DNA of 50,783 nt, filler included, from Jimgerdemannia flammicorona (Eukaryota), in NCBI GenBank assembly GCA_003990765.1. It is 2 parts of 2 records of this genome, joined end to end, with 100 filler letters (N's around TTAATTAATTAA, not from the genome) between each part and the next. Parts side by side here need not be neighbours in the genome. Positions count along the whole stretch, not along the records: positions 25,445 to 50,783 come from RBNJ01000845.1; 1 more part is not named here. The stretch is one strand, 5' to 3'. The notes below the pieces were generated by a model. The model worked only from the letters and a program-made list of their open reading frames with translations, ran no database searches and was not told the origin of the DNA. The translations under genes were made by a program, and so were the position numbers. Every line of letters begins with the position of its first letter. Within the stretch, counting starts at the first letter, position 1. This document shows positions 10,722 through 45,873 of the stretch, in pieces.

Positions 10722-11604
10722 GATGTGGCCGCTTAAGAGGACTCGGGGTGTCCTGAGGAAACGCTCAGGAAATATGGGACTTGCAAAACTAAAAAGTAAG
10801 CCTTCCAGGTCTGTCGTAGTCTTTTTTCGGGGCAAATTTTTCACAACAACGATGACATCACACACAGTCATTCCCACAATCCCCCACTCCCGTCACTCGG
10901 GTTGACCTCTTCATGCCATCGGCCGTCGTAAATACCCTTTGAACAATTTAAACAAGTGGACACAAAAGTTCGTGGTTGAGACAAGCTTCTCCGTTTCCTT
11001 CTACGCGTTCCCGTCTACGAGACTTTGTTGGGTACCTTGCGCACAGTTGTCGCAGATGTTTAGGCGCGTGATGTGGTGATAATGCGAGGGATTCGTATAT
11101 ATATTAACAAAAAAAAAAAAATAGAACAATAGAAAGTGAAACACGGTGAAACCTGAAATGTCCGATCGCTCGGCCTCCAGAGCTTAGCGGTCAAACGCTA
11201 CGCTAGGCATGACAACGATTTTGATTATTCCCTTCAAGGGAGCCGAATTTCAAGGGCGGGATACTTTGCGCATCACTCCAACGTAATCAAAACATAACCT
11301 GACCTACTCCACCATCATATACGATAATTCCTTCGATTCTGCATCACAGATATCTACCATGTTTTTCAATCTGGCGCTCTAATTCGGTCACACATCCTCA
11401 TCGCACATAGTGACGACGCCAGTGTGCCTTAAGTGGCCAAACAAAGAACATGTTTGAGATCCTGAACTCTGAGAACAAACATTATGCGCCTCGACCCAAT
11501 AAGTCCGTTACACATGCCGATAAATAAAAAGACATCTGACCATCACCTTATTACCGACAAAAATTCTAAAGACTGGTTTGCACCGTTCTCCTTTTCGCCG
11601 AAAA

Positions 11605-22916: not shown

Positions 22917-24774
22917 ATGGATGCAACTGGGATTACAGCATCGATCGTCGCATTGCTATGCGGTGCCCTCATTTTCCGCGACATCAACCTTCGGCTAAGG
23001 TAACAAATTTTCGCGTCAACGTTTTGTTGCGAAACTCCCCCCCCCCCAAAAAAAAAGTAACTAGTTTCATGTGCGCAGGTGGAGAAACGTAAATCTCCCT
23101 GGTCCACCTCGCTACCCCCTGATTGGAAGCCTCATTGTCAACGCCAGGGATATCATGGATATGTTTAAGAACCAGTCCCGTTTTGGTACAGTATCGGCAT
23201 TCTTCCCGTTGAACAATCCCATCGTGCTGACGAGCGATCCCGAGGACTTCAAGAGGATATTTACTACGAATATTGCTCCCAAAGGTAGATAAATTTGTTT
23301 CGTTTTATTTATTACGGTACAGTTCTCCAACATGACGTTTTATACACACAGGGAGTACCGTCGAAAGTTTGGGCCAATACCTAGGTCCGAGCGGGATCGT
23401 CTTTTTGGACCACAACGGCCCGGAAATGACGCCATGGAAGACGCATCGTCAGGCTATTGACCAGGCTTTTCGAGTGTCTTCACTGCGAAGTTTCCAGCAC
23501 GCTATTCAAAAGCATGCGGAGGATTTCGTGCAGAGGCTCGAGAGTCAGGATGGTAAAGAAGTCGATATGGTTGTAGAGTTCAGAAGAATTGTTTTGAACA
23601 TTACGTCAGAACTAGTTGGTAAGCATCAAATCTGTTTGTTTTCTTGACAATAGTCGGTGGTGCGGTTTTACAAACCTCGCAGCTAAAATCTACCTTCTTA
23701 ACAAGGCGCTGGTGACGCTCCCGCCGAATTTCTTGCCGCCATGACCGACTTGATCTGGTCGCTCGATTCTCTCCTCATCCGTACACACCTGTCTATAGGC
23801 GGGATCTACTTAAAGTGGTTGAAGCGACGGTCCTTCAAGATTGTTGACAACTTCCTCAACGAAGCGATCCGTGCCAAGCAAGCCGAACTCGCACGACTTA
23901 CAGACGAAGAGCTCTTAGGCCGCCAATCCAACAACCTCCTCGAACTCCTCCTCCTCACCGGTCAATTCACGCCGAAGCAGATTCGCGACCACCTCGTTAT
24001 ATTCTATCTCGCGGGCCTCGACACCGCCGCCAGCCTTCTTCCATCTGCCCTTTTCCAGATTGTGCAGCACCCAGATGTGTGTCGTCGCGCCGTTGCCGAG
24101 CTCGGTTCTGTACGCAGCCCGCTCGCGTACGATGACCTCAAGAAACTGCGTTACACGACACATTGCGTGGAGGAGTCACTCAGAATGCGTGGGCCCATTA
24201 TCGTGACGGCGCGTGACTTGGATCGGGACTACGAGCTCGCTTGTGGACAGGTCGTACCGTCTGGGACGATGTTGTTGGCGCATTTGCATGCCGTGCATTT
24301 CTCAGAGGAGTGGTGGACTGAGCCGCAAAAGTATAATCCTAGTAGGTTCGATAAGGAGGAGAATGGAGGGGTTGTGGAACCAAAGCACCCATTCGCCTAT
24401 GTACCATTCGCTGCCGGACCTAGGATATGCATAGGTAAATAACTGTTCAATTTTTTGTGCGGAAGATCATCTCAAGAGTTTCTGGCCAACTAATTTCTCA
24501 AAATGTGACGAACATTGTAGGACGCAATCTCTTCTTCTCCGAAGCTCTAACGCTTTTGCACAAGACTCTGACACGTCTGTCATTTGAAATCATCGATCAT
24601 CCTGATAATGGCGTCGTGTTGGAAGGTCATGGGTATGCTACACCGTTTCATTGGCGCTGATTGTCCCCCAATGAAGATGATCTAACCTATCTGGCCCATA
24701 CTAAACGTTTTATTGACTTCGGCTACAGATTGAGCATCCCGAAGATGGTCAAATTTCGTGTCATGAAGCGCTAG
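22917..24774 (+). CDS. Cytochrome P450 monooxygenase (6 exons)
   Basis: N-terminal anchor MDATGITASIVALLCGALIF, PGPPRYPLIG hinge, I-helix AGLDT, K-helix EESLR, PSRF, and heme motif PFAAGPRICIG(R). The last exon LSIPKMVKFRVMKR* ends at 24774. Confidence 0.93.
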
Positions 24775-25444: not shown

Positions 25445-25515
<71 letters not shown>

Positions 25516-25517
<2 letters not shown>

Positions 25518-25761
25518 GATAATCATATTATCTATAAACCATCATTCATCTTTCTATATCATAGTGGAAGATTTTATTTATCATTTGCTGGAAACTTGCT
25601 GGTATATTATATATTCTAAATAGTATTCATAGGTAGACATATATTCCATCTAAGGTAATGAAGGCTGACTTTTTACTTACTGTTTCTGTAAGATCAATTT
25701 TATAAAATTCTGAGTATAAGTTCAAAGTACTATAATACTGTACTTTATCTTCTAGAGCTAT
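25516..25761 (-). mobile_element. Ty3/gypsy reverse-transcriptase fragment (third copy of the same family)
   Basis: Minus-strand translation gives YYSTLNLYSEFYKIDL..KSAFITLDGIYVYL..PASFQQMINKIF, homologous to the RT at about 32060-32280. Confidence 0.8.
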
Positions 25762-25974
25762 ATTGATATATTTATATCTATTATCTAAGTATATAATATA
25801 TATTTTACATTTTGTTTTATTCTTTATTATTACTTTAAACTTTTTGAATTTCTCCAAGATCTCACTTTTTACTATTAAAGAAGTATACATATACTTTATA
25901 TAATTATTAATAAATATAATAAAATATCTCTTCTCACTATAGGAAGTAGTATATATCAGACTATATATATCTAT

Positions 25975-26475
25975 TATAATATAGTGGATATATAACTAGA
26001 TAAGTATGTCAGATTTCTATATCTTGAAAACTTGATCTTCTTTAACTCTACAGAGTCCTTAGAATGTAGGAGTGGGTGAGTTCAAAGTGTATCTATCCAT
26101 AGACTTACTAGTTCTCTTACTTTCTCTTTACTTTGAACTATTTTAATCTGAGATTTTATTTACTCTAGATACTGGGAATATTTATACAAGTTTGCTAGCT
26201 ATGTATAAGGTAGCTAAGTTATGACTATGTTTTCTGTAAGTTATTTTTTATAAGTGTTACTTCTTGACATCTGTTAAATCTTTGATAATTATCAAAACTT
26301 TAACATCTGTAAAATCTTGACATTTGTGAAGAGTTTAACATTTATAAAAACTTTAATATTTGAGAAATATAGCTACTATTTGTAAGGTTATACTATATTT
26401 GGAAATCAGATTTAAATACTACAATCAAATGTCTTTTCTCTTGATTTATATTCCTAATTTAGATCAACCATCACA
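25975..26475 (-). repeat. 3' LTR of the outer gypsy (501 bp)
   Basis: Ends in CCATCACA (TGTGATGG on the minus strand), matches 38905-39334, and contains six 18-bp repeat units. Confidence 0.9.
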
Positions 26476-26516
26476 ACTTCCTTCTGAATAGGTGATTTAT
26501 CTCTGAAATATCCTAT

Positions 26517-26978
26517 TTACTTAAACTTTTAAGTTTTCATCAGTTGTATCTCCTTATACTGTATAATTTGTATCATTATATTCTTTTAGTAATATCTTTT
26601 AATATATTTAAAGTCTCCTGAAACTACTTCTCAGAAATGGGCTAGAGCTGGCTCATCATCTTTAAACAACTTATTAACTTACTTGATGACTATGATCTGA
26701 GTATTAGAGAGCTAGTACTCTCTAATCTAGTTTTCTTTTTCTATCTCTGACTATGAGTTTAGTAGCTATCTTAACTTAAAGTATTCTTGAAACTCAGTCT
26801 GATTCTGGTAGATCTTAAAATGTGAGATTTGTGACAAATATATCTGGATAATACTCTAGATACTATCAAAGGATTCTTCTATAATTAATGGCTCAGTAGT
26901 ATACTATTGTCTTTCTATGACTAATTATATAGTACTGATAATTCTGAGGGCTGTGGCAGTACTTTATTAATTAGTCAT
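26517..26978 (-). pseudogene. ORF3 of the outer gypsy (unknown protein, disrupted by stops)
   Basis: 462 nt, the same length as the inner ORF3. Reads LSQISHFKIYQ..EFQEYFKLR..KLFKDDEPAL..QIIQYK..KFK*. Confidence 0.8.
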
Positions 26979-28540
26979 AATACTTCTTGAGTCTATTTTA
27001 GTAAATAGTAGTAGAGATGATTATATCTGAGAGTTTTTATAGCCAAAAGGTAGTTTCTTTTATATCTTATATAAGGTAAGATCTTTTCTACTTAGGCTTC
27101 AGTTTTCCTAACTATGAAGCTTTTATTATATTCTAATATGTATATCAGGACTTTGTCTCCTATCTTAATAATCTCCAGAGGCTTGTAAACCTTTTCTGTA
27201 TTATTCTGCTATAGTGTCTGTACCTTAGTTATATAATTCTCAATCTTTTTTCTGATTTAGATTGTCTCTATATTTCTGTATCTATATATTTCTATATCAT
27301 ATCTCTATTTGATGATAAGATTCCTTGAGAACTTTCTTTTCTAAACAATATCTCTCAAGAGATGAAATAAGTACTTTGTGATTAGATATCCTAAAGAGTA
27401 GATAATACTATTAGCAGATAGTGATCTCAGTTTTTATAGTTATTATAAATCTTAGTAATGATATTCTTGAGAGTCTTATTGATTCTTTCTACTTGTCTAT
27501 TTCTCTGAAAGTGATAGGCTGTAGTCTAAATATACTGGATCTTATACTTTTTGTAGAGAATCTCAAAGAACTAGTTCACAAATTCTGTTTCTCTGTCTGT
27601 AGTTACTTGTGCTGGAGTCTTGAATTGGCAGATAATTTCTTTATAGAAGAAATCAGCAATTAACTGTGTATTGACTTCTTTGAGGAGTCCTGCCTCTATC
27701 CATTTTGTAAAAAGGTCTATGATGATAATAATGTATTAGTTTCCAGTTAAAGTCAAGGATAAAGAACCAATTATATCTATTATAATATATATAAGAATAT
27801 TGGTTCTATATATACTGATCTGAGGTTTTGATTTTATTGGTCTTATTTCTATTTTTGATATTTGTTACAGATCTTGACAAATCATCTGATAACTTTCTTC
27901 ATTCCTAGTTATCACATTGTTCTTCTTGCTTTTTTATAGGTATTTATTCCTTCTAGATGGCCAAGTTTATATACTGATTTCATTGTTTTCTCCTTCTTAT
28001 ATTTGGATATAACTAGTAGCTTTTCTTTCTTTAGTATTTCTCCATTGGTCTCAAATTATTTTCATATTCAATTGATAAATATTTGTTTCCATTCTTTCAG
28101 ATATTGAGGTATCTTACACTATCTCAAATAAGTAATAATTCTGTAGTAGAGTTTCTTATTCATAATTGATTTGCTGGTTGGGGGTTTTTCAGAATATCTA
28201 TGAGAGAATATCTACATTGGTATTGATTCTTCCAGAGTAATATATGATAGTTATATTATAAGCTTACAACTTCATAATCTATCTAGTATAGATTCCTTTG
28301 GGTTATCCAGTGGTCAGTAGCTAGATAAGGGCTGAGTGATTTGTCTGAATGATAAAGTATGTATCTCTCTGCAAGATAGTAGTGGAACTTCTCTATGGCC
28401 CAGATAACTACAAGATATTCAAACTTGTAGAATTTATACTCTTTTTCAACTTCTTAGGTTCCTTGGCTGAGATATGTGATAATATATTCTACTTTATCTT
28501 TCTTCTGGACCAGGACTGCTCCTAGTTTTTATACATATAC

Positions 28541-29006
28541 TGTGATGGTACAGCCAAATTTGGAAGAAGGAAATAGGGAATAGACACTTGATCGCACCCA
28601 GTCTCAAAGTAGTATAGCCTTATAGTTAGCAGTCCTTGATTTCAACATTGTCTAAATTCTTAGATATTGTCTAAATTTTTAGACATTATCCAAATCAAAT
28701 GTCCCGATTTAGTATAGCATTTAGACATTCTCTAAATATTTCAACAAAGTCCAAATGGCTCATCTATTACTTAGCCACCCTCTCATAGCTAGCAAACTTG
28801 TATAAATAACCCAGTATCTTAGAGTGAATAAACCTCAGATCGAAAGTGTTAGAAAAAGAACAAGTATACTGATAAAAGGACCTTTGGGATTATCTCTTTA
28901 AACACATTTGGCCTCAAGGAACTACTGACTCTGGGAGTCAAGAAGACAAGAATTCAAGATAAAGAAATCCAATGTACTTGCCTATCTTAGCATCTACTAC
29001 ATTACA
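28541..29006 (+). repeat. 5' LTR of the inner gypsy
   Basis: TGTGATGG...ATTACA, with TATAAATA and AATAAA inside. About 94% identical to the 3' LTR by eye. Confidence 0.95.
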
Positions 29007-29105
29007 ACTTAGTGCCCATTGGCTGGTGATTCAAGATGAATCTCTCACTTTCAAGCTGAACAACGAACAACTACAACAAGAACCCATACAACACAATCAG
29101 ACAAA

Positions 29106-32100
29106 ATGGACATAAGACTACCCATATTCCATAGATACACCTCTGATGAATCATTTATCACCTTCATCGACAATTTCAAGCAGTATGCTGCCATAAGGAC
29201 CTTAAGTGCAGTACAACAAGCAGCTCTACTCCCTGTAAGCCTCAGAGGCCTAGCAAGAACTATATTCACTATAGCTAATATTGCGGGAAATGATGATCCA
29301 GCAAGACTCCTAGCTTTCAAGACCTGGCTCTGAGCAACCTATTATACAGATGAAATCAAACAAGTACTCAAGGATCAACTGAATACTATCTGCCAAGGAA
29401 TGTCTGAAGACCCAAACACATTCTATACAAGAATCCGACATCAAATAGTCCTTGCTGACTATCCCGATGCAGTTCAAGACCAAGTGGCCGAGAATATCTT
29501 CATGAAAGGCATTCATCAAGAAATCACTTTAGCTATCTGATCTACCCCAATGGCTCTGGACCTGGGCCAGAAGGTTACCTATGCCCAAAGATACTAGACT
29601 GCCAGACACCCTCAAGGCCATACAATAGAAAGAATAACAGGAGTAAAAATTGAACAAGTACCAAGGGTCACCAATATAGTCCCAGCTACCATAGTCAACC
29701 GAAATACTCAATGACAACCACAAGAACAGAGAAGAGTTGACCCAATGGAGGAACTGGCCAAACAGTTCGTAGAAATGACTGCACACCTCAGTAATATAGT
29801 CAAAGAGTTCAAGAAGAAGCCAGTACAGAAGTTTGTCACTACAAATGCAAGACGATCAATAACATGCTACAATTGTGGAGAAGAAGGCCACTATGCCTCT
29901 GAATGTATGACAGAAACCAAGTGAAAGACCAATCTAAGCAATGCAATCAGAAACTGTGAGCAGGCAAATACTATCACCTTTGAGGAGATTGGAGAATCTG
30001 AGGAAGAGAGGAAAGAATGGGAAGCTTACCCTGCCACCTCAAGCAAGAAGGATGTCCAATCCAGTCCCTACAAAAGATCTCTAGGCAGACCTCCTAAGAA
30101 GGCCCAGATACAAACAAGACAACCAGAAACAGTCATCGAAAAAGAGAACCAGCAGAGTGAAGCTGATCAAGATATAGAGCTGGAACAAGATGCTGAACTT
30201 GAATGAGCGGTAGAAGATATCTTCAGAAACACCACCCTATCAAGTGAAGGGAAGAAGGAGCAGAAATTGCGTAAGAGCAAGACCTTCAAATATGATATCT
30301 TCAAGGACCTCAAGGACCAAAAAGTCAATGCAATCTTTGGCCAACTAGCAGAAATCCCAACCTTCAGACAACAAATGAGGACAGGAATCTCAGATATTGG
30401 CAAAGACCAAGGTTGGAAAATAATTGAAGCCAATAATGCACAAGAAGATTCAGATGAAAAGAGTGAAGATAATCGGAAAACATCAGTCTATGCTATCTGC
30501 CAGATCGAGGATCGAGTCTTTGAAGCCATTATTGATATGGAAGCAGGGGGATATCTCATTACCAAGAAAGCAGTAGACCACCTAGGCTGGGAGATAGAAG
30601 AAGCCACCAAACTGGTATTCATTACAGCTGATGGAACATGAGCAACACCCTTGGGAAAGATCCGAGATGTACCAATCAAGTTCAGAGAGGCCACTATCCC
30701 TGTGGATGTCATCGTCATCAATGCAACCAACTATGATATCCTCATCAGCAATCAATGGCTTCATAAAGCCAAGGCAATAATTGACCTCAGTGCACAGAAG
30801 ATATAGATCATCTACTGGGGAAAGAAGATCAGAATTATCATCAATATCCACAAAGGAGTCTACCCCGAGATGGAGGAAGATCAAGAAGAAGAAGCCTATA
30901 TGGTTACTACAAAGAAAGGAAAAGGCAAGCAATTGACAGAGGAAGAATGGTATATAAGAATTACAGATGGATATGCCCCACTAGGAAGGTGCCCCTATGG
31001 TGAAAGAATATACTGTGTCCAGCACTTGGATTGCTACTACTCTTGTATCATTGAGGTGAAGAAGATCACCAATAAGCCAAAGAAGAACTAGGAGGAACTA
31101 GAAGATGGACCACCAGAGTTATTGGATGATAGTGATGATGAGGATAAAGATATCACAGTCAAGATATAAAGGATTCACCCTGATACAGTCACACCACAGT
31201 ACAAGTTAGAGAATACAGCTAGAATGGACCTATCTACTACTACATACACAATACTCAAACCACAGACTACTACTATTCTAGGAACAGGAATTGAAGTAAC
31301 CATCCCACCAAACCATGTTGGAATCCTCAAGACAAGGAATAGCCTAGTGAAAAGCAAAATATCTATAGAAGGAGGAGTTATTGATTCAAATTATACTGGA
31401 GAAATCCTTCTCCTTGCCAGGAACCACAACCCAATAATCCCATTTGAAGTAAGGAAGAAGGATCGGCTGGCACAAATGCTCATCCTACTTGTCCTTAATC
31501 CAAGAATCAAGGAGGTTGCAAACATCAGACAAACTCAGTGAGGGAGAGCTGGATTCAGCTCTATAGGAAGAGGAGTCCTCGCAGTAACTAAGATCACCAA
31601 ATTGGAGTACAAGATGGAGGAAAGCCAAGACAAACACACCTATACAATCAGAAGAAACTTCCCCCTCAGAGAAGAATTGTAGAGCCTCTTGCATATATTC
31701 GAGGATGTACTGGCCATGGATTTCAAGGACATCAAGACCAAGAAACCCTTGTATTATTATAATATCAATACTGAAGATACAAAGCCAATCTATCAGAAGG
31801 CCCGCCCCATTTCACCAGCATACAGAGAATAGCTCAATACAGAGATCAAGGAAATGGAGGAATCTGGTATCATTGAAGAAGCCATCAGCCCTTGGTTCTC
31901 TCCCATCATCCTTGCATCAAAGAAAGAAAGCCAACCAGGAGAATTTACACCAAGACTCTGCACAGACTATAGAAGACTCAACGAGGTCACAGAGAAGGAC
32001 AGACAACCATTGCCAAATATTGGTGATATTCTTATCATACTGGGGAATAAATCATGATTCTACATCACTCTGGATCTGTTCTCAGGATTCTACCAAATTG

Positions 32101-33089
32101 GCCTTACACCTGAAGCCAGCAAAATATCAGCCTTCATCACCCCTGATGGAATCTATGTCTATCTCTGCATGTCCTTTGAAATGTGCAATGCACCAGCAAG
32201 CTTCCAGTGAATGATAAACAGCATCTTCAGAGATGTTATGGAAAAATAGATGATGGTATATGTAGATGATGTGATTATCTTCAGCCAAACAGCCAAAGAG
32301 CACTTGGAACATATTGAGGAAATCCTCAGAAGACTTCACAAATATGGTCTCTACATCAAGCCCAAGAAATGTAAGTTCAGAGAAGAAGAGATTGCATACC
32401 TTAGACACATTATCAACTGTGAAGGAACATACACAGACCCCACAAAGATCAAAGCAGTAGTAGTATACTCAGTACCTACCAGCATCATGGAAGCCCGAGC
32501 CTTCATGAGACTTGCATCCTACTACAGAAGATTTATTAGAAGATTCTCCCACATTGCCAGCCCTATCTATAATCTGTTCAGAAAAGAGGTTAAGTTTCAG
32601 TGAACTCAGCAGCAGCAACTAGCCTTCAATGAGCTCAAGACCAGATTGACCCAGGCCCCAATCTTGAGAAGACCTGACTGGACTCAGGAGTTTATTCTGC
32701 AAACAGATGCCAGTGTAATAGGAATTGGAGCTGTCCTTGCACAAAAGAAAAATGGTGCCAAATATATGGTAGCCTATCTCAGCCAAGGTACTTGTGGGGC
32801 AGAGCAGTCCTATGAGTCTTATAAGCTGGAATGCCTTGCAGTCATCTGGGCTGTAGAGAAGTTCCACTACTACCTAGCTAGAAGACACTTCACCATTCAG
32901 ACAGACTACTCAGCACTCACCTGATTGCTCACCACCAGCGAGCCCAAAGGAATCTATGCTCGATGGATTATGAAGCTGCAAGCATACGATGCCACAATCA
33001 CCCACTACCCTAGAAGAACCAACACCAATGCTGACGCCCTCTCATAGATACCCCAAAGGACCCCACTCTCACAAAATCACCATGAATAA
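29106..33089 (+). pseudogene. Gypsy ORF1: gag-protease-dUTPase-RT-RNase H in one frame, many premature stops, no net frameshift
   Basis: Zn knuckle CYNCGEEGHYASEC; PR AIIDMEAG (decayed DTGAG); RT PRLCTDYRRLN, LDLFSGFYQI, YVDDVII; RH LQTDAS, ECLAVIWA, TDYSAL, NADALS. ORF-track pieces at 29106, 30267, 30870, 31224, 31854, 32250 and 32646 are all in the same frame. Confidence 0.93.
31161..31568 (+). pseudogene. dut: Trimeric dUTPase domain inside pol, between PR and RT
   Basis: All five motifs are recognisable though decayed: ARMDL, TRNSL, EGGVIDSNYTGEI, DRLAQML and (R)GRAGFSSIG. Confidence 0.92.
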
Positions 33090-34275
33090 GGAGCTGTACT
33101 ACAGAATCATCAGCTACCTGGGGCAGCAAAAGATGCCCCTGCATCTGGAAGAATGGACAAAAACAATTATTAATCGGACATGGAAACAATTTGAAACTGA
33201 TGGAGAAATACTCAAGAAAGGACAACAATTAGTCATCCCCAAGCACCAGAAGAATCAAGTGATGAAAGAAGTACATAAACAGAGTCATATAGGAGGAACA
33301 AATACATATGACAAAGCAAGAAGAACCATGTGGTGGCCCAGAATGGAAGAAGATATCAAACAATTTGTCAGAACCTGTGACAAATGCCAGAAACAGAAAT
33401 AAGACCAACAGGATCAAGCCTCTGGATCAGCAGACATTGAACCAATACCATTTGCCCACATTGTAATGGATGTAATTGGCCCTCTACCCCTAATATTGAC
33501 TGGCAACTGATATGTCATTATAATAGTGAATCTATTTACAAAATGGGTAGAGGCCAGACCCCTCAAGGAAGCCAATACACAGTCAATTGCTGATTTCTTT
33601 CATAGAGAAATCATCTGCCAATTCAAGACCCCAAAGCAAGTTACTACAGACAGAGGAACAGAATTCGTCAACCAGTTCCATGAGGTTCTTTACAAGAAGT
33701 ATAAGATCTAACACATCAAGACCACAGCCTATCACCCACAAGAAAATGGACAAGCAGAAAGAACCAACAAGACTCTCAAGAACATCATTGCTAAGATCTG
33801 TAATGAATATGGAAACTGGGACCACTATCTACCAATAGCATTATCCACTCTGTGGGATATATGATCACAAAGCACCCATTTTATACTATGAGAAATGCTA
33901 TTCAGTGAAGAAGGTTCTGGTGGAAGTTTGTCAGCAGGTAATGATGCAATCTGGAAGCATGTGGACACAGAGATATGGAGATTACATCAAATTAGAAAAA
34001 AGGCAGAGGATTATATAATCAAGGCACAGGCACTATAACAGAATAATGCAGAAAAAACCCACAAGCCCCTGGAGATTATCAAGATAGGAGATGAAGTCCT
34101 AGTATATTGGAATATGGTAGAAGCTTCTTGGTCACGAAAACTGGAGCCCAAGTGGGAAGGACCTTATCTGGTACAAGATATAAAAGGGACTACTTTCCAG
34201 CTATGAAAGTCCTCAGGCACAATAATTCTCACCACCATTCATTGAAACTGACTCAAGAAGTACCATGGCCAATAA
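33082..34275 (+). pseudogene. Gypsy ORF2: integrase (HHCC, DDE, GPY; no chromodomain), in the +1 frame relative to ORF1
   Basis: MNKELYY...VHKQSHIG...CDKCQ...MDVIGP...TDRGTEF...ENGQAERTN...KLEPKWEGPY...KKYHGQ*. Confidence 0.9.
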
Positions 34276-34726
34276 CCGAAGCACTGCGATGGCACTCAAG
34301 ATCACTAGTGCTGCCCAAAGAGCCATTGAAAGACAATGGCACACCACCGAGCCTCCGACCATAGAGGCATACTATGAGGATATTTAGAGTATTGTGCAGA
34401 CTCATCTCTCTCAGATCTCACACTTTAGAGCCTATCAATATTGGGCAGAATTCCAAGAGTACTTCAAGCTTAGACAGGTACTCAATCAGGATCCAGCAAA
34501 GACCAAAGAGGACTGGATTGCTGAGTGTCAACTCTCCCACTCACAGATCACTATTGTCAAAAGGATCCACAAGTTATTTCAAGAAGATGAACCAGCAATA
34601 GACCACCTGAGAGGAGTAATCCCCACTGACTTCGAGAAAGTAAGAAGACATTATTGGGAAACAGTCATGCAGCAAATTGTACAGTATAAGACCATACAGA
34701 CAGTTGAAGCCTGGGAGTTTAAATAG
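34265..34726 (+). pseudogene. Gypsy ORF3: 153-codon protein of unknown function (one internal TAG)
   Basis: The ACCATGG start overlaps the end of the integrase. Reads MANNRSTAMALKITSAAQRAIERQWH...EFQEYFKLRQ...EAWEFK*. Conserved in the outer copy. Confidence 0.8.
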
Positions 34727-34763
34727 ATGCCTCAGGGATAAGACCATCTATTCAGGAGGAAGT

Positions 34764-35229
34764 TATAATGGTACAGCCAAATTTGGAAGAAGGAAATAGG
34801 GAATAGACACTTGATCACACCCAGTCCCAAAGTAGTATAGCCTTATAGTTAGCAGTCCTCGATTTTAACATTGTCTAAATTCTTAGACATTGTCTAAATT
34901 TTTAGACATTATCCAAATTGAACGTCCCAATTTAGTATAGCATTTAGACATTGTCCAAATATTTCGACAAAGTCCAAATAGCTCATCTATTACTTAGCCA
35001 CTCTCTCATAGCTAGTAAACTTGTATAAATAACCCAGTATCTTGGAGTAAATAAACCTCAGATCGAAAGTGTCAGAAAAAGAACAAGTATACTGATAAAA
35101 GAACCTTCAGGATTACCTCTTTAAACACATTTGGCCTCAAGGAACTACTGACTCTGGGAGTCAAGAAGACAAGAATTCAAGATAAAGAAATCTGATGTAC
35201 TTGCCCATCTTAGCGTCCACTATATTACA
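34764..35229 (+). repeat. 3' LTR of the inner gypsy
   Basis: TATAATGG (from TGTGATGG)...ATTACA, 466 bp. Confidence 0.95.
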
Positions 35230-38200
35230 ATACTTATATATATCTACAGGATAAATTTCTGAGTCCAATCAGATCTTCTGAGGATAGGTGCTTAGGTCAG
35301 CCTAATCTTGAGTTTATTAAATACTTTTTATTATCTGCTAGTCCAATGAAACTTGATATCTTTCTTATTGAGTTTGTAGATTAGATCTATAATATTAGAG
35401 AATTCTCTAATAAATTTATAGTAGTATATATGAAGCAAGTCTCATAAAGGCTTGAGCTTTAGTAATAATGGTGAGTCTTAGATATATTACTACTACTTAA
35501 ATCTTAAATAGGTCTATATATATTCTATCTCAGTTAATAATGTGACTAAGGTAGAAGATCTCAATTTCTGCAAACTTACACTTCTTGGGCTTGATGTAAA
35601 GACCATACTTCCTTAGCTTCTCTATCATCTACTGGATGTACTGCAGATATTCTTCTGATATCTTACTGTAGATGATAACTTTATTCATATAAACTATTAT
35701 CTATCTTCTTATATTATAGCAGAAGATTTTATTTATCATTTACTAGAAGCTTGCTGATATATTATACATTCTGAATGATATTTGTAGATAGATATAAGTT
35801 TCATCTGAAGTAATGAAGGCTGACTTCTCACTTGCTACTTCTGTGAGACCAATTTGATTAAATCCTAAATATAAGGTACTATAGTACTATACTTCATCTC
35901 CTAAGATTATAAGAATATTACTGATGAGAGACAGTGGTTGGCAATTCTTCTTTATAGCTAGATTGAGCTTCTTATAATTAGTGCAGAGTCTTGGGGTAAA
36001 TTCTTTTAGTTTGTTTCCTTTTTTTAGAGCTAATATAACTAGTGAAGCCCAAGGACTACTGGCTTCTTTAATGATACTAACTTCTTCTATCTGCTTGATT
36101 TCTTCTCTGAGCCATTTGTAATAGACTAACAGGATTAGTCTTGCTTTTTGATAAATTGGTTCAGTGTCTCCTGTATCTATATCATAATTGTAATATAGAG
36201 TCTTTTTCTTGATATTCTTGAAGTCTATGGCTAGGATATCTTTGAATTCATAGAGTATCTTCTTGAGTTCTTTCTTGAGCAGAAATTTATCTCTAATGGT
36301 ATAGCTATACTGTTTGTAGTTTTCTCCTTGTAATCTAGTTCAGTGATCTTGGTACTAGTAAATACTCCTCTTTCTATATATAGATCTGAATTCTTTCTTT
36401 TCTCTTTCTGTTTCCTCCAACTTCTTGACTTCTATAATCTTTGGCTGAAGAACTGAGAAGATCAATATCTGTATCAATTAGTCTTTCTTCTTATTTGGAA
36501 ATAGAATCATAAGGTTGTAGTTTCTAGCAATAAGTACTATTTCTTCAATATAATCTAAATTGATAACTCCTCCTTTAATAGTAATCTCATTCTTGGTCAG
36601 ACTACTTCTTATCTTGAGGATCCTGACATAGTCCTTTAGAATGGTCATTTCCAGACTAGTTACAAGCAGAGTGGTTATCTGGGACTCTAGTATAGTTTTC
36701 TCTACTGTGGCAATATCTATTCTAGCTATATTCTCTAACTTGTATTCTGATAGAACTGTATCAGAGTGGATTTTCTAAATCTTGATCTTGATTTCTTCTT
36801 TATTGTCACTATTCTCTAGGAGGGCTGATGGTTTGTCATCCTCTTCCTACTCCTTTTCTTGCCTTGTCTGTTTCTTAAGAGTCTTCTGTCTTCTTTTATA
36901 GTAGATTTTCTTAATTCTGCTGATATATTATAGTATATATCTTTCAATAATCCTTTTGTCTCATTCTTCTTTATAGATCTATCTGACTTTCTTCTTCTTT
37001 TTCTAAGTAGTCACCATATAGACTTCTTCTTGCTCACTTTCTTCTTCCTTTATTTCAGACAGTACTTCTTTGTTAACATTGATGGAAATTTGTATCTTCT
37101 GACCTCAGTAAATGATCTGCATCTTCTGAGAATTAAGGTCAGTTATTACTCTGGCTTTATGAAGCCACTGGTTGCCAATGAGGATATTATAGTTAGTAGT
37201 ATTGGTTATGATCATATCTACTAGAATAGTTACTCCTCCAAACTTAATGGAAATATCTTGGATCTTTTCTAGAGATATAGCCTTGTGCTATCTGCTATAA
37301 TGAATATCAATTTGGTTACTTCTTCAACCTCTCAACCTAAGTAGTCTACTACTTTCTTACTGAGGAAATATTCTTCTGCTCCAGTGTCAATGATGGCCTC
37401 AAAGATTCTATCTTCAATTTGATAGGTTATATAGACATATTTCTTGCAATTATCTTCACTCTCTTCTTTAGAGTCTTCTTGAATATTGTTGGCCTCAGTT
37501 ATCTTTCATTCTTGTTTCTTGGTTATTTCTACAAGTCCATATCTCATTTGCTGTCTAAATATGAATATTTCTACTAGCTGGCCAAAGATTGTATTGATCT
37601 TTTGTTAACTGAGATCCTTGAAGATATCATACTTAAATGTCTTGGTTTTGTATAGCTTCTTTTCCTTTTCTCCTTCACTGGCTGAGATAGTTTCTCAGAT
37701 GATATCTTGGACAGTCTGTTCCAGCTCTATATCTTGATATATTTCTTTATCTTGGCTTTCTATAGCAGTTTCTATCTGTTTTTCTACAAAGTTCTTCTTG
37801 GATCTCTCTGGTGATCTCTTATAGAGTTCCTTTCAGACATCTTTCTTAGGAGTCTATATAGGGTTGGTCTCTCATTCTTCTTTATCTAATTCTTTGATTT
37901 CTTCAAAGGTAATAGTGTTGGCCTATTCCTTATTCTTTATAGCATTACTTGGCTGAGCTTTGTACTTGGTCTCACTTATATATTTATATAAGTAGTGATC
38001 TTCTTCTCTATAAGTATAGTAGATATCTCTCTTCTTGTCTGAGGTAACAGCAAACTTCTGAACTAGGTGATGGTCTCTTTCTCTAATTTTCTTTATCATA
38101 TCTCCAAGATGGGTAGTCATTTTGGCAAACTTCTTAACAAGTTCCTCCATAGAGTTACTGTTTCTCTATTGCTCTATAGCTCTTAGCTAAGGTGGGTTTC

Positions 38201-38904
38201 AATTGATCACTATGGTAGAAATCACACTAGTTGCCTTGAGTACCTCAATTCTGACTCTAGTGACTCTTTCTATTATATGATCTTATAGATATCTGGCTAT
38301 CTAGTATTGCTGGATATAGGTAACCTTTTATACTAGATCCAGAACTACTAGTAATAAGTAGATGGTCATGACTATCTGAGTGAACTCCTTTTATAAAGAT
38401 TGCTTTAACCACTTGATCTTGAATAGTATTAATATAATTGATAAGAATTATCTGATATTATATTCTGGTATAGAATGTATTTAGATTTTTACTTATTTCT
38501 TGATATATTATATTGAGCTGATTCTTCAGGGCTTGCTTGATCTCATCTATATAGTAAGTAGTTTAGAGCCAGGTCTTCTATGCTACTAGTATGGCATTAT
38601 TATTATTTTCTATATAGGTTATAGCTATGAATACTACTCTTACTGATTCTTGGAGACTAAAGGATATGAGAGCTACTTGCTGTCTTGCTATCAGGGTCCT
38701 TATAGCAGCATACTGCTTGAAATTATCAATAAAGATAATAATTGATTCATCTGAAGTATATTTATAGAATACTAGTGGTCTCATATCTATCTTGTCTAGA
38801 TGTCTTGGTTCAATTTGTATAGTTGTTCAAGTAGTAACAGTTATTTGTTGTTCAGCTTAAAAGTGAGAGATTTATCTTGAATCATCAGCCAATGAGCACT
38901 AAGT

Positions 38905-39334
38905 TATAATGTATTGAATATATGTATAACTAAATAAGTATGTCAGATTTCTGTATCTTAAAAACTTGATCTTCTTTAACTCTGCAAAGTCTTTAGGATA
39001 TAGGGATGAGTGAGTTCAAAGTATATCTATCTGTAGACTTACTAGTTTTCTTGTTTTCTCTTTACTTTAAACTATTTTAATCTGAGGTTTTATTCACTCT
39101 ATATACTGAGAATATTTATATAAGTTTGCTAGCTATAAGATAGCTAAGTTATGACTATATTTCCTGTGAGTTATTTTTCCCAAGTATTAATTCTTAACAT
39201 TTGTGAATAGTTTAACATTTGTGAAATATGACTACTATTTATAAGACTATACTATATTTGAGAATCAGATTCAGATACTGTGATTAAATATCTATTCTCT
39301 TAATTTATATTTCTGATTTAAATCAACTATCATA
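38905..39334 (-). repeat. 5' LTR of the outer gypsy (430 bp)
   Basis: Matches 25975-26475 but has only two repeat units. Adjacent to a PBS/leader nearly identical to that of the inner element. Confidence 0.88.
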
Positions 39335-40045
39335 CTATATAAATTAAATCAAGTATACTAGATATAAGTTTTATTCATTTTTGAAATAGTCATTAGAATG
39401 CTTTATTTGCTATATAGTCTTCATAGAAGTTATTATTGAGATATATATATATTTATCAGTAATCTACTTACTAAACTATTTCTGATCATTATTTTTAAAC
39501 TTGATTTGTCTATATATCTTAAGTATTAATATCATATATTAGATATATCAGATGTAGTTGTTACATATATAGAGACTTTCATATTATTTGATATACTATT
39601 GATCATATATATAAAGATTGTCTTGTTTTGTATTATAATCACCTTATCATACTTCAAACTATATACTATTACTATCATTGAGTGTATATATTTCTTTATT
39701 ACTATAGGCCAACATTTTGCCAATTGAGAAGAGGTTCTTTTCTATCTTCAGAGTATATAGTATGTATATTCTAAAAAAATACTGATAGGCTCTATAATAT
39801 TCCTATAAAGATATATGATAATATTATTATCTAACTTAATTAGTACTAGAACTTATATATGGAGAACTATTCTTAGTAGATTATTATATATTATATAGTA
39901 TCTGAATCTATAAGCTATATATATTATTATTATTAGCTATATTGGTATATACTTTGTTATTAACATTATTATCTTTTGCTAGCTCAAAAGTATATAGCTT
40001 AGATATAGATATAGGTGTCTTCTCTATATACTCAGTATATATATT

Positions 40046-40046
<1 letters not shown>

Positions 40047-40110
<64 letters not shown>

Positions 40111-43100
40111 TAGTCTCTTGAACTCCTTTATTACCAAAACACATCTATATTATATTAGAATATAATATCCAACCTATCCCACTATCCAATCTTCCTAGGA
40201 GAGATTCTACCAACTTTTACTTATTTGAAAACCACTTAACCCTCCAATACCTCCATTTGACCCCTGCTCTACATATACACCTTTAATAAGCTAGTAGTAG
40301 TAGCCACTCTGTGGCCTCCAGCCCACTCACTAGCCAGTCAAGAGATCCTCCATCAGTCCATTCCATCTTGATGACTGCTTTATAATACTCAACCACTGTC
40401 TATTCTCAAACACAAAGAGCTAATGCTCAGCCAACCCCATCCAAATCACTAAGACTCAGTTATATATAAGCTACTCATTCTCTACTCTCTCTATAAGCTA
40501 CTTCTTCAAATCCTCCCAATGGCCCCTCACCTCATTTCTCCTCCTACTGATCTCCAGATACTTCTCTACAGCAATCTAGAAATCACCAAGCACCTCATAC
40601 TCTCCTAGTCAATATTCAGATAACTGTATAAAAACCCCTTCCTGTCCTACATTAAGGCAATCCTCATACTCAAACTTACCCCTCTCAACCAAATGACCAG
40701 AGTAGAAGTTTAGCATGACATTTCTCCTTAGTATATACCACCACTCAGAACTTAGAGAGAAACCACTGCTTGACCTCAGTACTTTAGGTCCAAACTCTAG
40801 TTCAGTTCCACTCCTCACCTATACTAACACTCTGCCAACCCACTGGCTACATATCCAACCCCATCACCCTCTGACACTCAATCTCATCTCTAATATTAAA
40901 TTCAATAAGGAGAGAGTTACTAAGAAGGAGCCTATTCTAGTACTATATTGCTAGCCTCCAATATATTGCTCTACTACTATAGCCCAATATGATACACCCC
41001 TACAGCAATCCCCTACTAGAATCCTTTAAAGTACAACCTCCCACTATTCTGCAGGTCTACTAGTAATAGAAGATCCCTTATAGAGCCCCTCAGGGAAACC
41101 CTCAGCTCTTATACCTTCTGCATTAAAGGAACCCAGCTATCCTCTCTCAGTTTCAGCTATCAGGCCCTCACACAATGAAGCTTTCTCAGGAAATCCACTA
41201 GACTAAGACCTCTACAGTTCACAGATAGTGAAAGAGTACTTCAGTCAATTTGACTTCAGTGCTCTGCCTAGATCTAGTCCTTAGCCAATCTCAGCAGCTA
41301 CCTTACTACTTAAGAAGAGAAATTTAGATAGTAGACCAAGTACCATATCTTCAGTAGCCAATAGATATTCAGAATTACCACTCTGCTAGTTAGAGAGATG
41401 TAGCACACTCCCTAGCTCTGAAGTACCTCACCCTAACTTGAGACTCTGCTCTCTCACCAGACTCTGGTCAGAACAGACTTATATACTGATAGATAGATAC
41501 CAAGATACTGCACAGCTTTGCCAGCTGGAACAATTGTTCCAATGATATTCCCTCCCATCATCCTATTCCCAAGCACCATAATCTCACACTTATATCAATT
41601 CAACCTTATATCAGAACATGCCTCATATCACTCTACTGTCTCCTTCAACATCTCTACATCAGCTATAGAGTGAAGTCTCACTACCATATTATCAGCAAAG
41701 GTACCCACCTTCTAAATGACTCTGAAAACTAACAACTCTACTACTCTATGCCATATCCTATCTATAAGGAGTTCCAAAGAGAGAGTATAGAGAATGAGTG
41801 ACAATAGATCCCCTTAAGGGACCTCTCTTCCTAGGATGAATATTGCATCCTTATGGCTATTGTATAAGATAGCAACCCTACTATCTTTTAGTAAGCTGAT
41901 TATAGAGATCTAGAATTACCATGAGACTCTAATTCTGTTAAATATTTTACCTAGCTAGATATGTCTCACCCAATCATAGGTCTTTTCTTAATTCAAAAAA
42001 ACTAGTCTCTCATCCAGACTACTTATCCTAGCTTCTTCAATGATACCATATACTCATGCTGTACCATTATAAATAAGGTGGCCCCCAATAAAGCTATACT
42101 GCTCCTCACCTAGTATCAATTGGACTACATGCTATAGTCATACTACTATCATCTTGGTAATCAACTTTCTGTCTATGTCCAGGAGCATAATCAGCCTCTA
42201 GTTCCTCCAATCCTCTCTACTACTCTTATTCTTATAGAGTAATATCACTAAGCCAAGATCCTGCTTGCCAACCCATCTCTCTGTCAAGAGAACATAATCA
42301 CACAGTACTACTATCTCTCCAAGAACTCAAGAAACTCTCATCATTCACTTTCAGAAATCCCAAGAGAGCCCATCCTCACCTGAGGCTGTATCTGACTTTG
42401 TAGTAGAAATGACCTACTGAATCTCCTCCTCCTGAACAGACCAGGACAGTCATTCAATACTATCTACTGGAGGCAGATTCTAGTCCTCCAGAGTAAGCTC
42501 AATGTCCTCAGCACCCATACCCCTAGCCTTCTCACTCTACAAATTGCTCTATTATTCCTTGAGAGAGCCAAGAATCTGCTAGGTACTATGAATGATCACA
42601 CTCTCAGAATCAATCATGCTATCTCACCTCTACTTTATCTGTCTGGCCCAAAGCAGTCAAGAAAGATACCTAGAGGGTCTCTCTCTCTCCTCCAATCTCT
42701 ACCATTATAACTAAGCAACCATTCTCTTCACACATATCTCCTTCTTCTCTCTCAAGATAGTTTATAACTCTATTACCTCTAGTTTGATATGTACCAACCT
42801 CCAATCATCAACCCCTTCCAAGCTCAGCAATTCAGCCCAAGCTCTCTGCAGCTGAGTAAGTCTTCTGGAGGCCCAATGCACCCTCTCTCTCTTCTGCCTA
42901 CCTACCATCTGACCAGCCTCCTCTCAGTAAACCCTGGTATTCTCCTTCAATCACCTCCAAAAAGTATCTATAGGAAGGCCCTCACTGATTCAACTGCTAA
43001 TCTTCCACTGAATATCCATAACCCATCTGTCTCACAGCTCTCTTTCCACTAGTAAAGAGGAGTTGAGATACCAATGTCCAGGCCCATCTCCACTCCTTCT

Positions 43101-45873
43101 AAATAACCCTGTCCCAGCAGTCTTCAATGATTAGACCATAGATACTACTCAGTCTCCAGTGACTTTCAAACATCCAAACCTCAGCAGTCCACTGTCAGTA
43201 CTCAGTCAATTCTTATCTCCAGACCATTAGTCCAGTGCATATAAATCCTCCTATCTCTCCAGAACCCCCTACTAGTATCCACTAGAGAACTCAGCCTTTC
43301 TACTTCCTCTCATATTTCCAGCCCCCCACTCCTACCTCCAGCTCCCTACTCTCCATCAATTCTATCCACCAGCATATTCTGGATCATATTAAAGTCCTCT
43401 CTAAGAATGTCCACTCCAGTCTCCATGAGGGTCCCACTTTTCTGGAGTCTCTTCACTCACTTCACCTATTCACCCAATACAGCAGGGCAGTAACAGGAAC
43501 TTATAGTAACCAGCTCCCAATCTGGTTGAATTCACTCTCTCCAAACAAGACAGTCTCCTCAGCTCCTCAGATTCTATATCTCCCCTTTGCTACTTTGGAC
43601 TAAGATTCCAATCTTGTTCTTCCAAACTACCTCACCTCTCTATTCCTTCATTCAATTCAGTATATCCAAGTTATCTTCATATCTAACATCCTGCAAAAGA
43701 AAGAGATTAGCCTCCAATCTCTTTAGCTAAGTAAAAATATTCTGACTTTGAACTGATCTCCTTAGCCCATTTATATTCAAAGAAAAAATATTGGTTATAC
43801 TATTTATAAGAAGTAATATTAAGAGTCAAGTATCATCTTTACAATTTCACATTCATCTCCTCCTATGTCAAGTCTAAATTATGCTCAATAGTCACCTCTT
43901 TCTTTTTAACTCTCTTAGCCTCCAATCTAACTAGTAGTTCAGCTAGTTCTCCATCCTCCTTTTCCTTGAAGTCCTCATACAGATCTCCTGTCAGAGCTGC
44001 AATCTATATCTCTCACCAGTAGCAACTGTCAGCTCTACCTCTCTTACCTTATCAATCTCATATCCTTTCTCTTCCAAGAAAACTACAAGCACCTCTACCT
44101 TCAGAGCCTCTACTACTCCATTGCTATATAGGATTTGCACCCATTGATCATTACTAAGTACTCTTAGGTCTATATCTCCCAACTCCTCAGCCACTAAGTT
44201 ATTCATCATCTGACATATCCATTGTAGATTACCCACCTCCTTATCACCTAGAGTCACTGGCCTCTCCTCCCCAAGCATCAAGGTATTAGTCTCTATACTC
44301 ACAGTCTCATCTTACTCCTCCTCAAAGACATCTACTAATTTATCCTTACTAGCTACCACTACCTGTCTCTCTTTCACTATCTCAGAAACTCTAAAGTATA
44401 CTTGCTAGACACCTTGTATAGATACATCCTCTACTGCTCAGCCCCTTAAGACTGGACCCCATCTAATAAGAGGAGGAGTATCCTCTCAGACTTTAAATAT
44501 ACCATCTATATATAAGTCTTTACTAGGTATCTTCCTGGCCTCTTCCAGACTCTCTTCTATATTCTCCCCCCAAACACTTACTTTGGCTCCTCCAGTATCC
44601 TCAATTCTATCAGTATCTCTCTTTACCTTATTCTCCAGATTCACCAGCAGCTCTCTCTGCTACTTGCATCCTTGAGATCTCTCTTACAGCCTCTTATCAA
44701 TATGAATGCACTTCCCATCTACTATCTCTAAATGTGTTGACTCCATATATACCTTCCAAGCCTTTGCTCTCTACTCTACTGCACTACTTAGCTTCTCCAG
44801 TACCTCTAACAAATCCTCCTCCTCCTCCTTACTTCTCTTTATCCTCATCACCTTGTATATGAAGGTCCTCCACACTATCACCAATGGCCAATTATGAGTC
44901 TTCTCAGTAGCCTCTCTTCTGGCCAACCAAATCTGAACATCAATACTCTATCCTAAACAAGATCTCTTTCTAGACCCAAAACCTAACATTGACCACCTCT
45001 CTATACTCAGTCATGACTTTCTCAACTCTCTTCCTTATCTCTACAGTAGTTACCATAGATACTCCTTTTACCAGCAATTGAACCACTCTGGGGTCCTACC
45101 TCAAGCAGTATATTATCAGAACACACACCTCCCCAACAGTCAGCCCAGTCCAGCCTTCAGTATATCCTCCAATGGTCCAATCTCCTCAAAGCCTACCTTC
45201 ACCTCTTCCAAATCCCTCAGGAACTTTACAGATACTATACCCTCTATCTGCTTAGCAATCAGCCCAAAACCATTTTTGATATCACTACTAAGCCTCAGAA
45301 GCACAAAGTAACTGTAAACTCTAAGATCAACTTCTTGAGTAATGGGGCTACTACTAGGCCCATTATACTATCTGCCAGATCCCCTATCTATCTGGGCTCC
45401 ATCTCTCAGTCCTACTATCAGCAGTTATATCTGGATTTTTTTCCAGATCACCAGTTACTGCTCTATCAGTAGTCATACTCCCAGCTACTATACCTCTAGC
45501 CCTTCTACTCAACACCCCCAGGAGAGTTCCTTCTGGTCCCCTAGCAGCAGTCTTCTCTTTGCCACTCTGCAGCCAACTATCTAGTCCAGCTATCAGATTC
45601 TTCTGCTTGACTTTCTCAGCAAAGCTTATTCAATTCCCCTCTGGTCTCACTATACTTTCTCCTCCAATACTGCCAACCCTCCTTCCTCTCAATAAAGTGC
45701 TTGACATCCTCAAACCTACTCTCTGACCTCTCCCCACATGCTGCCAGCTGAATACATTACCACCCTGTCTAGTAAACTCTGTAGAACTCTGATTTAAGGA
45801 CATATTCTTAAGATATTTCTCTAAAGAATAGTATAAAAGTAAGTAATATGTATTTATATAATGTGAGATATAT
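40047..45873 (-). mobile_element. Full-length non-LTR retrotransposon (L1/Tx1-like; ORF1 + APE endonuclease-RT ORF2), degenerate
   Basis: Poly(A) tail seen as T63 at 40047-40109. ORF2 remnants: FSLNINGL and FLLQD (APE, about 43690-43790), EDFN, WRLIML, (Q)GDLLSLILYTLSLE, FADNM. Approximate TSD TACTCAGTATAT(AT)ATTR at 40029-40046 and 45874-45889. Confidence 0.88.

Follow-up and report, generated by a model that had tools for sequence, protein, structure and literature searches.

Nested gypsy elements and a third reading frame

An open reading frame (ORF) of 462 nucleotides (nt), referred to here as ORF3, occupies the gap between the integrase C-terminus and the purine tract of a Ty3/gypsy-type long terminal repeat (LTR) retrotransposon of Jimgerdemannia flammicorona. 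The window, i.e. the whole stretch of DNA that was analysed, is 50,783 nt long (filler included), and the element that carries ORF3 lies at 28545-35230 on the plus strand. This inner element interrupts an older member of its own family, which runs on the minus strand and whose two parts (25974-28544 and 35231-39332) were delimited by blastn. The inner gag-pol is split by many stops and frame breaks into numerous stop-to-stop pieces, so that the element is dead, and its domain order was taken from a nearly intact relative, the metagenome locus L001. The features of the nested pair are as follows.

28545..29007, plus strand: 5' LTR of the inner element, a 463-nt direct repeat 94% identical to 34768-35230 (blastn)
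29106..34275, plus strand: decayed gag-pol of the inner element, with CCHC knuckle, protease, dUTPase, reverse transcriptase (RT), RNase H and integrase
31170..31541, plus strand: dUTPase domain inside pol, between protease and RT (Pfam PF00692, E 1e-17)
34039..34206, plus strand: integrase C-terminal GPY module, translation ...KLEPKWEGPYLVQDIKGTTFQL
34223..34225, plus strand: TAA closing the ORF3 frame 13 codons 5' of its ATG, at the same place in the inner element, the outer element and L001
34265..34726, plus strand: ORF3, 153 codons and a stop (462 nt), with the ATG in ACCATGG at 34265 and the stop TAG at 34724-34726
34385..34387, plus strand: in-frame TAG breaking ORF3 at codon 41, a position held by Q or R in intact relatives
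34754..34762, plus strand: polypurine tract AGGAGGAAG, read directly, just 5' of the 3' LTR at 34768
34768..35230, plus strand: 3' LTR of the inner element (blastn), partner of 28545..29007
25974..28544, minus strand: 3' part of the outer element (3' LTR at about 25974-26473, ORF3, integrase), interrupted by the inner insertion
26517..26978, minus strand: ORF3 of the outer element, which is heavily C-to-T mutated; this copy has 13 in-frame stops
35231..39332, minus strand: 5' part of the outer element (5' LTR, gag, protease, RT)

Pfam recognised dUTPase, Integrase_H2C2 and rve in the window pieces of the inner gag-pol, and the GPY module gave weak, sub-threshold matches to MLVIN_C and SH3_Tf2-1. 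A chromodomain following the GPY module was detected by Pfam neither in the inner element nor in L001. The inner pol frame closes at TAA 34273-34275. The polypurine tract is kept in L001, and in the outer copy it is present with G-to-A changes. L001 and the outer copy also agree with the inner element in the arrangement of ORF3, polypurine tract and LTR.

A preliminary description of this DNA, made from the sequence alone, had placed a 462-nt ORF with an ACCATGG start between integrase and the polypurine tract. Position, start and length stand, whereas the frame is not open in the window: the TAG at codon 41 leaves 34388-34726 (112 codons) as the longest open stretch. The colinear copy of equal length that had been reported at 26517-26978 on the minus strand was recovered, with its 13 stops. 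A tblastn search of the window with the intact relative P0001 returned two real matches, which are the two ORF3 copies, and one chance row (E 6.3); inner ORF3 is 79% identical to P0001 over 153 residues. The blocks IERQ, LSQISHF, EFQEYFKLR, KLFxxDEPA and QIxQYK are indeed present in both copies, and the differences between the copies do fall mainly at third positions, with 55, 37 and 82 at codon positions 1, 2 and 3. Inner and outer ORF3 both have TAG at codon 41, to be explained either by parallel C-to-T changes at one hot site or by gene conversion within the nested pair.

Selection on ORF3

Three DNA copies of ORF3 (inner, outer and L001) are available, all of 462 nt and aligned without an indel. 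The proportions of nonsynonymous and synonymous differences (pN and pS) were obtained by the Nei-Gojobori method for L001 against the inner element:

ORF3, 152 codons: pN 0.195, pS 0.791 (saturated)
Integrase, two pieces: pN 0.043-0.065, pS 0.27-0.28
Gag to RNase H: pN 0.079, pS 0.466

Despite saturation of the synonymous sites, 102 of the 153 ORF3 residues (67%) are identical between the two proteins, without indel. Differences were further counted by codon position in the ORF3 stretch outside the pol overlap, for each pair of copies:

Inner and L001: 34, 23 and 77 at positions 1, 2 and 3 (p 1.2e-8)
Inner and outer: 52, 33 and 72 (p 7e-4)
Outer and L001: 44, 25 and 69 (p 2.5e-5)

Because C-to-T hypermutation could distort such counts, the codon tests were repeated with transversions only. 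Between inner and L001, again outside the overlap, transversions number 12, 13 and 34 at the three positions (p 4e-4), and the transversion-only omega (ratio of nonsynonymous to synonymous change) of ORF3 is 0.19, 0.26 and 0.37 for the three pairs of copies, whereas the two shifted frames give 1.83 and 1.81. An omega of 0.19-0.37, which is not near 1 and is free of the C-to-T effect, indicates that the ORF3 frame was selected as a protein. The past purifying selection on a protein that had been proposed from third-position differences is thus borne out by pN 0.195 against pS 0.791 as well as by a ratio freed of C-to-T changes, and purifying selection clearly acted on the ORF3 protein.

Divergence is far higher in ORF3 than in the adjoining pol, with a dN of 0.225 against 0.044-0.083 between L001 and the inner element. 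The GC content at third codon positions (GC3) of ORF3 is 0.47, that of pol 0.48-0.50, and this likeness to pol gives no sign of recent capture.

Intact relatives and a second subfamily

A search of 5.8 billion proteins returned seven candidates, all seven of which are ORF3 relatives at E <= 0.01. P0001 is intact, with 153 residues and the same start and end as ORF3. DNA copies were sought with ORF3 profiles in metagenome contigs, which gave the single locus L001 (6479 nt); neither the A1 nor the A2 profile found a copy in viral contigs, and prokaryotic genome contigs yielded none. L001 holds an intact 153-codon ORF3 at 5795-6256, after the integrase. Its gag-pol frame (774-4616) carries the following Pfam domains, and the H2C2 and core domains of integrase lie in separate frames after RNase H:

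Residues 206-222: zf-CCHC
Residues 418-507: aspartyl protease
Residues 648-775: dUTPase (E 2.7e-28)
Residues 892-1057: RVT_1
Residues 1120-1248: RNase H

These domains show L001 to be a Ty3/gypsy element close to intact, arranged as CCHC, protease, dUTPase, RT, RNase H and integrase.

The proteins fall into two ORF3 types, and L001, whose pol is close to that of the inner element, carries an ORF3 of the other type. The first 40 nt of L001 encode the last codons of a first-type ORF3 (…KTIQTIEAWEFE, then the stop), followed by a polypurine tract and an LTR. A locus with two types at its ends would result from tandem elements with an LTR in common, from a swap of ORF3 alleles between backbones or from a chimeric assembly.

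A profile search of 1.84 billion representatives yielded only four matches, one of them distant (P0010, E 2.3e-4). P0010 led to a second subfamily, to which 11 of 38 candidate proteins belong; its full-length members have 165-168 residues, and identity to P0001 is 20-26%. Alignment of the subfamily profiles A1 and A2 with hhalign gave a probability of 97.1% (E 4.8e-11, 109 columns), and on this profile evidence the two ORF3 subfamilies are taken to be homologous. Common to both are an N-terminal helix, EFQ, and a helix with a conserved R...LF that is followed by AL.H..G(I/V). Both also end in acidic residues around tryptophan, EAWEFE in the window type and ELDEWDL in the second. The last 35 residues of the second subfamily carry a net charge of -9 to -13 and conserved Y/F/W. 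The family members stem from metagenome or assembly records.

An acidic-tryptophan stretch resembling the ORF3 C-terminal motif was also seen in the spacer between gag and protease of L001 (…GESEEEQEEWEAYPATSS…; about 29990-30050 in the window). It makes up the sole alignment between Gag and ORF3, a non-significant one, and may reflect a shared short docking motif or chance.

Protein features and predicted structure

Among eight family members the maximal 19-residue Kyte-Doolittle mean is 0.19-0.89 and the grand average of hydropathy is -0.33 to -0.80; no membrane segment is detected by Kyte-Doolittle in any of the eight. ORF3 was said not to be env-like, and by the criterion of a signal peptide and/or transmembrane segment the hydropathy maximum of 0.89 agrees: the predicted product is not that of an env gene. 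Nor does Pfam find a chromo signature in ORF3, as had also been stated. AlphaFold2 run with 21 sequences gave, as the best of five models, an all-alpha structure of eight helices (predicted local distance difference test, pLDDT, 85.0; predicted template modelling score, pTM, 0.81). The ORF3 protein is thus predicted to be soluble and all-helical, which fits the character first suggested for it.

No relationship to a known family was detected. Among 21 members, Pfam gave no family at E <= 1-5 besides scattered weak unrelated matches; PDB sequences gave only chance rows (E 0.044 and 0.26); the ESM Atlas offered only unnamed or unrelated clusters for P0001 and nothing usable for P0014; and fold searches with the model found no match by Foldseek (PDB, BFVD) or VIA-align. 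A chromatin-reader fold was not matched in these fold searches. A retroviral capsid was likewise not among the fold matches listed, an absence that does not exclude a capsid fold, and hhalign of profile A3 against L001 Gag found no similarity (probability 0.4%). ORF3 showed no similarity to the element's own integrase. The preliminary description had recognised no family, and neither a family nor a match to a described retroelement domain emerged from these searches. ORF3 therefore appears to found a protein family without known relatives. No description of the protein was found in full-text literature either; papers are not searchable by sequence, and this is not proof that it is unpublished.

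Start codon, pol overlap and expression

The ORF3 frame is +1 relative to pol, and its ATG lies within the last codons of pol. The pol stop follows this ATG by 11 nt in the inner element and by 44 nt in L001. Since pol ends at different points, its tail beyond ...RYHG is not conserved; residues 1-25 of ORF3, in contrast, are conserved. Within the overlap, changes at ORF3 codon positions 1, 2 and 3 number 1, 2 and 10 (by subtraction of counts). The N-terminal helix and the position of the Met are common to the distant second subfamily. No longer or fused form of ORF3 was scored among 214 candidates, which is weak evidence, and no conserved slippery motif was seen in the pol-ORF3 overlap, inspected by eye only. 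Separate initiation at the ORF3 ATG in its ACCATGG context is the simplest reading of this arrangement.

LTR elements typically express their ORF3s by way of spliced messages, according to a study of bdelloid rotifers (PMC5408684). A motif scan of L001 found a single YAG acceptor 5' of the ATG and, in the leader/gag region, a single GTAAGC donor. Contigs over the element, counted at >= 80% likeness to it, number 1633 in the soil metagenome X1 and 446 in X2, with lower depth over ORF3. No splice-like joint occurs in these contigs, which are of DNA type and uninformative on expression.

Comparison with known systems

Surveys of plants (PMC7264820) and of bdelloid rotifers (PMC5408684) describe additional ORFs of Ty3/gypsy elements that lie in sense, between the pol gene and the 3' LTR ('aORF-3S', 'ORF3'). 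Window ORF3 shares with this class its place after integrase and before the polypurine tract, the sense orientation, conservation among copies, restriction to a lineage and an undescribed function. Most described members are env-like with membrane segments or are captured enzymes, whereas the window ORF3 product is predicted to be soluble and helical, with no detectable relative. By its position and coding conservation, ORF3 is a non-env, soluble sense additional ORF (aORF-3S/ORF3), i.e. of a known kind.

Two fungal cases are close in layout. An 'add. ORF' without assigned function, named for some fungal gypsy elements in the legend of Figure 3 in PMC2864245, may or may not be window ORF3. The brtn gene of Boty-like elements of Botrytis cinerea is, like ORF3, an additional gene of undescribed function between pol and the 3' LTR (in passages of PMC7264820 and 10.1101/2021.04.13.439636); it is antisense to gag-pol (PMC7264820) and therefore differs from ORF3, which is in sense and overlaps the pol stop. 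For the backbone, a dUTPase between protease and RT is reported for basidiomycete gypsy elements (PMC2864245, with PosPlaTy3-5 as an example, and PMC5408684) and for rotifer elements. The window element and L001 share the protease-dUTPase-RT order with the basidiomycete dUTPase elements (PosPlaTy3-5), a likeness drawn from the description of those elements.

CERV of the Caenorhabditis elegans element Cer1 is, like ORF3, a family-less accessory protein of an LTR retrotransposon; CERV is regulatory and illustrates that such elements can carry Rev-like regulators (in the portion of PMC10309623 concerned). The same source describes CERV as a protein of 517 amino acids (aa) encoded by a five-exon message that shares exons with gag, and with a G-domain-like fold. 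By this description ORF3 stands apart, with 153 aa, a place after pol and no G-domain-like domain.

The chromodomain of chromovirus integrases takes the same place as ORF3, directly after the GPY module. ORF3, unlike it, forms a frame apart from pol with a start of its own, and it lacks a chromodomain signature. Foamy viruses (Tas), human T-cell leukaemia virus (Tax/Rex) and lentiviruses (Tat/Rev) encode, 3' of pol, small soluble proteins that act in trans and are made from subgenomic messages; some of these proteins have acidic activation regions. No sequence or fold similarity of ORF3 to these proteins appeared among the PDB or BFVD matches listed.

Proposed role and alternative explanations

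ORF3 is very probably a real gene, and a genuine accessory gene of a chromodomain-less, dUTPase-bearing Ty3/gypsy lineage, in which it forms a sense additional ORF between pol and the polypurine tract. Its function was reasoned from its anatomy, namely a small soluble helical protein with conserved ends, an acidic-aromatic tail, an integrase without chromodomain and faster evolution than pol. The transactivator, anti-silencing and integration-targeting roles named in the preliminary description are conjectures. It is proposed, as a possibility rather than a probability, that ORF3 encodes a putative trans-acting nuclear regulator or adaptor of the element, the core of which binds an element component while the tail recruits a host factor. 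The product would be translated from its own ATG inside the last pol codons, in the +1 frame, and by analogy with other ORF3s a subgenomic message, either spliced or internally started, would serve for its expression. The predicted 153-residue protein would open with a helix at its N-terminus, continue with a helical core (about residues 40-125) and close with a long helix that bears the acidic-tryptophan end. The conserved core would bind an element component, most simply the LTR DNA or the genomic RNA, and the acidic-aromatic tail would recruit a host factor in the manner of an acidic activation motif, raising expression of the element. Expression route, cellular location, binding partners and effect on the element are all inferred.

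Several observations weigh against such a regulator. The tail of the window subfamily is short and weakly acidic (net -3), and the second subfamily, with its more acidic tail, is known from proteins alone and not from genomic context. AlphaFold2 with eight sequences reached a pLDDT of 52.4 only, and the four models other than the best one from 21 sequences scored 59.6, 57.8, 54.5 and 53.7; with one confident model of five, the fold itself is uncertain. A splice model that joined the YAG acceptor at 5744 of L001 to the GTAAGC donor at 762 led to the wrong frame and was rejected, splicing itself being possible. L001, moreover, is a metagenome assembly and possibly chimeric, which weakens comparisons of divergence along its length and leaves the codon-position tests unaffected.

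Among the alternatives to a nuclear regulator or adaptor, the one that fares best is a putative integration-targeting cofactor, which would bind the integrase or intasome and tether it to a host chromatin protein by the acidic-tryptophan tail. ORF3 begins exactly where an integrase without chromodomain ends, in the place where chromoviruses carry that domain, and the tail is conserved across both subfamilies; tethering through short motifs is, besides, the rule for the integrases of Ty5, Ty1, Ty3 and murine leukaemia virus. With neither similarity to integrase nor a matched chromatin-reader fold, a targeting role is nonetheless unlikely.

A putative RNA-handling factor of the Rev/Rex/CERV type, exporting, stabilising or packaging unspliced genomic RNA, is distinctly unlikely. 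A precedent is Cer1, itself a Ty3/gypsy element, which according to passages of PMC10309623 encodes a lineage-specific, family-less nuclear protein from a spliced message; if ORF3 too came from a spliced message, as is typical of LTR elements (passages of PMC5408684), the spliced element would need such a factor. CERV, at 517 aa, differs in layout and lies elsewhere in its element, no arginine-rich or other RNA-binding motif was recognised in ORF3, and the ORF3 element offered no consistent donor/acceptor pair or splice-like joint.

The doubt is just as marked for a putative counter-defence factor that would blunt host silencing by RNA interference, DNA methylation or C-to-T hypermutation. The host does hypermutate these elements, as seen in 545 of the 994 private changes of the outer copy, and the far higher divergence of ORF3 than of pol (dN 0.225 against 0.044-0.083), together with two ORF3 types on similar backbones, is a pattern that fits host-interaction genes. 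The excess divergence may, on the other hand, stem from recombination or from a chimeric L001 assembly; overall omega is well below 1, with no diversifying selection at the available resolution, and both window copies were mutated anyway.

ORF3 could instead be a C-terminal Pol domain, made as an extension of integrase through a +1 shift of the ribosome in the short overlap, and not as a separate protein. Its frame is indeed +1 to pol with an overlap of 11-44 nt, and Ty1 and Ty3 do use +1 frameshifting, but between gag and pol. The frame is closed 13 codons 5' of the ATG in all three copies, and the two ORF3 types differ in where pol stops, so that the junction residue of a fusion would differ too. 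Conservation of residues 1-15 from the Met onwards, the optimal ACCATGG start and, as weak evidence, the want of a longer fused protein among the 214 candidates make this very improbable.

That ORF3 has no present function, being a chance or relic frame kept through the youth of its copies or through an RNA or DNA sequence beside the polypurine tract, is scarcely credible: both window copies are dead and the family is tiny in databases, but this reading is contradicted by pN/pS, codon-position and transversion-omega results, with 102 of 153 residues kept without indel at a saturated pS of 0.79, a third-position excess that holds for transversions, an omega of 1.8 in the shifted frames and a homologous subfamily that keeps length and layout at about 25% identity.

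Beyond the proposal of a nuclear regulator or adaptor, a more speculative and rather unlikely generalisation is that ORF3 and its sister subfamily make up a putative new class of fungal retrotransposon host-interaction proteins, i.e. a stand-alone module that would replace the integrase chromodomain, and so steer integration, or counter silencing and hypermutation, dock a host factor by its tail and be swapped between backbones by recombination. As it stands, ORF3 is a well-supported gene and not a new kind of system. Additional ORFs are widespread in LTR retrotransposons, almost none has a known role, and fungal cases are barely described. ORF3 offers a clean case for study, being small, soluble and strongly selected, and its two subfamilies, divergent as they are, have a terminal motif in common. 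Soil sequence data contain it in abundance, and the element that hosts it is without the usual integrase targeting domain. Were ORF3 to regulate expression, integration sites or silencing, the way in which retroelements of fungi deal with their hosts would come into view, and the tail motif would then serve as a handle for finding the host partner.

Decay of the nested pair and surroundings in the window

By blastn, outer 26424-28522 matches inner 34815-32727 at 71%, and inner 28766-32699 matches outer 39152-35247 at 66%; the LTRs of the outer element pair as 25974-26277 with 38904-39207 and as 26335-26473 with 39194-39332. The GC content of the outer element is 0.25-0.33. Its copy carries 994 private substitutions, 545 of which are C>T or G>A, and per available site the C-to-T/G-to-A hits amount to 0.43 for CA, 0.39 for CC, 0.45 for CG and 0.27 for CT. 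The outer element thus underwent hypermutation with little dinucleotide preference, unlike classical CpA-biased repeat-induced point mutation. The inner copy shows a milder version of it. A target-site duplication of the inner insertion was not evident at the boundaries read.

Just outside the outer LTR, a gypsy RT-region fragment at 25517-25754 is 72-78% identical to 32081-32280 and 35688-35903. The nested pair is flanked at 25445-25539 and 39990-40109 by overlapping inverted-repeat registers of 66-95 nt that are 72-98% complementary; these have the look of simple repeats with short units and complementary composition, on either side of the insertion site.

To the right, a 5.8-kb block at 40100-45900 lies between two AT-rich stretches, and its plus strand is strongly depleted in G, at about 10% compared with about 30% for C (GC skew -0.3 to -0.54); its eleven stop-to-stop frames of 79-124 aa match no Pfam family. 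Farther on, a pair of neighbouring frames at 48082-49064 has matches to Retrotran_gag_2, a Gag family of copia type (E 5e-6 and 9e-9), which places a third, copia-like element at the right end of the window. On the left, 1-24500 holds eukaryotic host genes at a GC content of about 0.5, among them the following.

2947-4317: DRMBL fragment
7697-9128, minus strand: Myb repeats
11524-14394: Sel1/TPR protein ending in a MYND finger
23702-24442: cytochrome P450 exon

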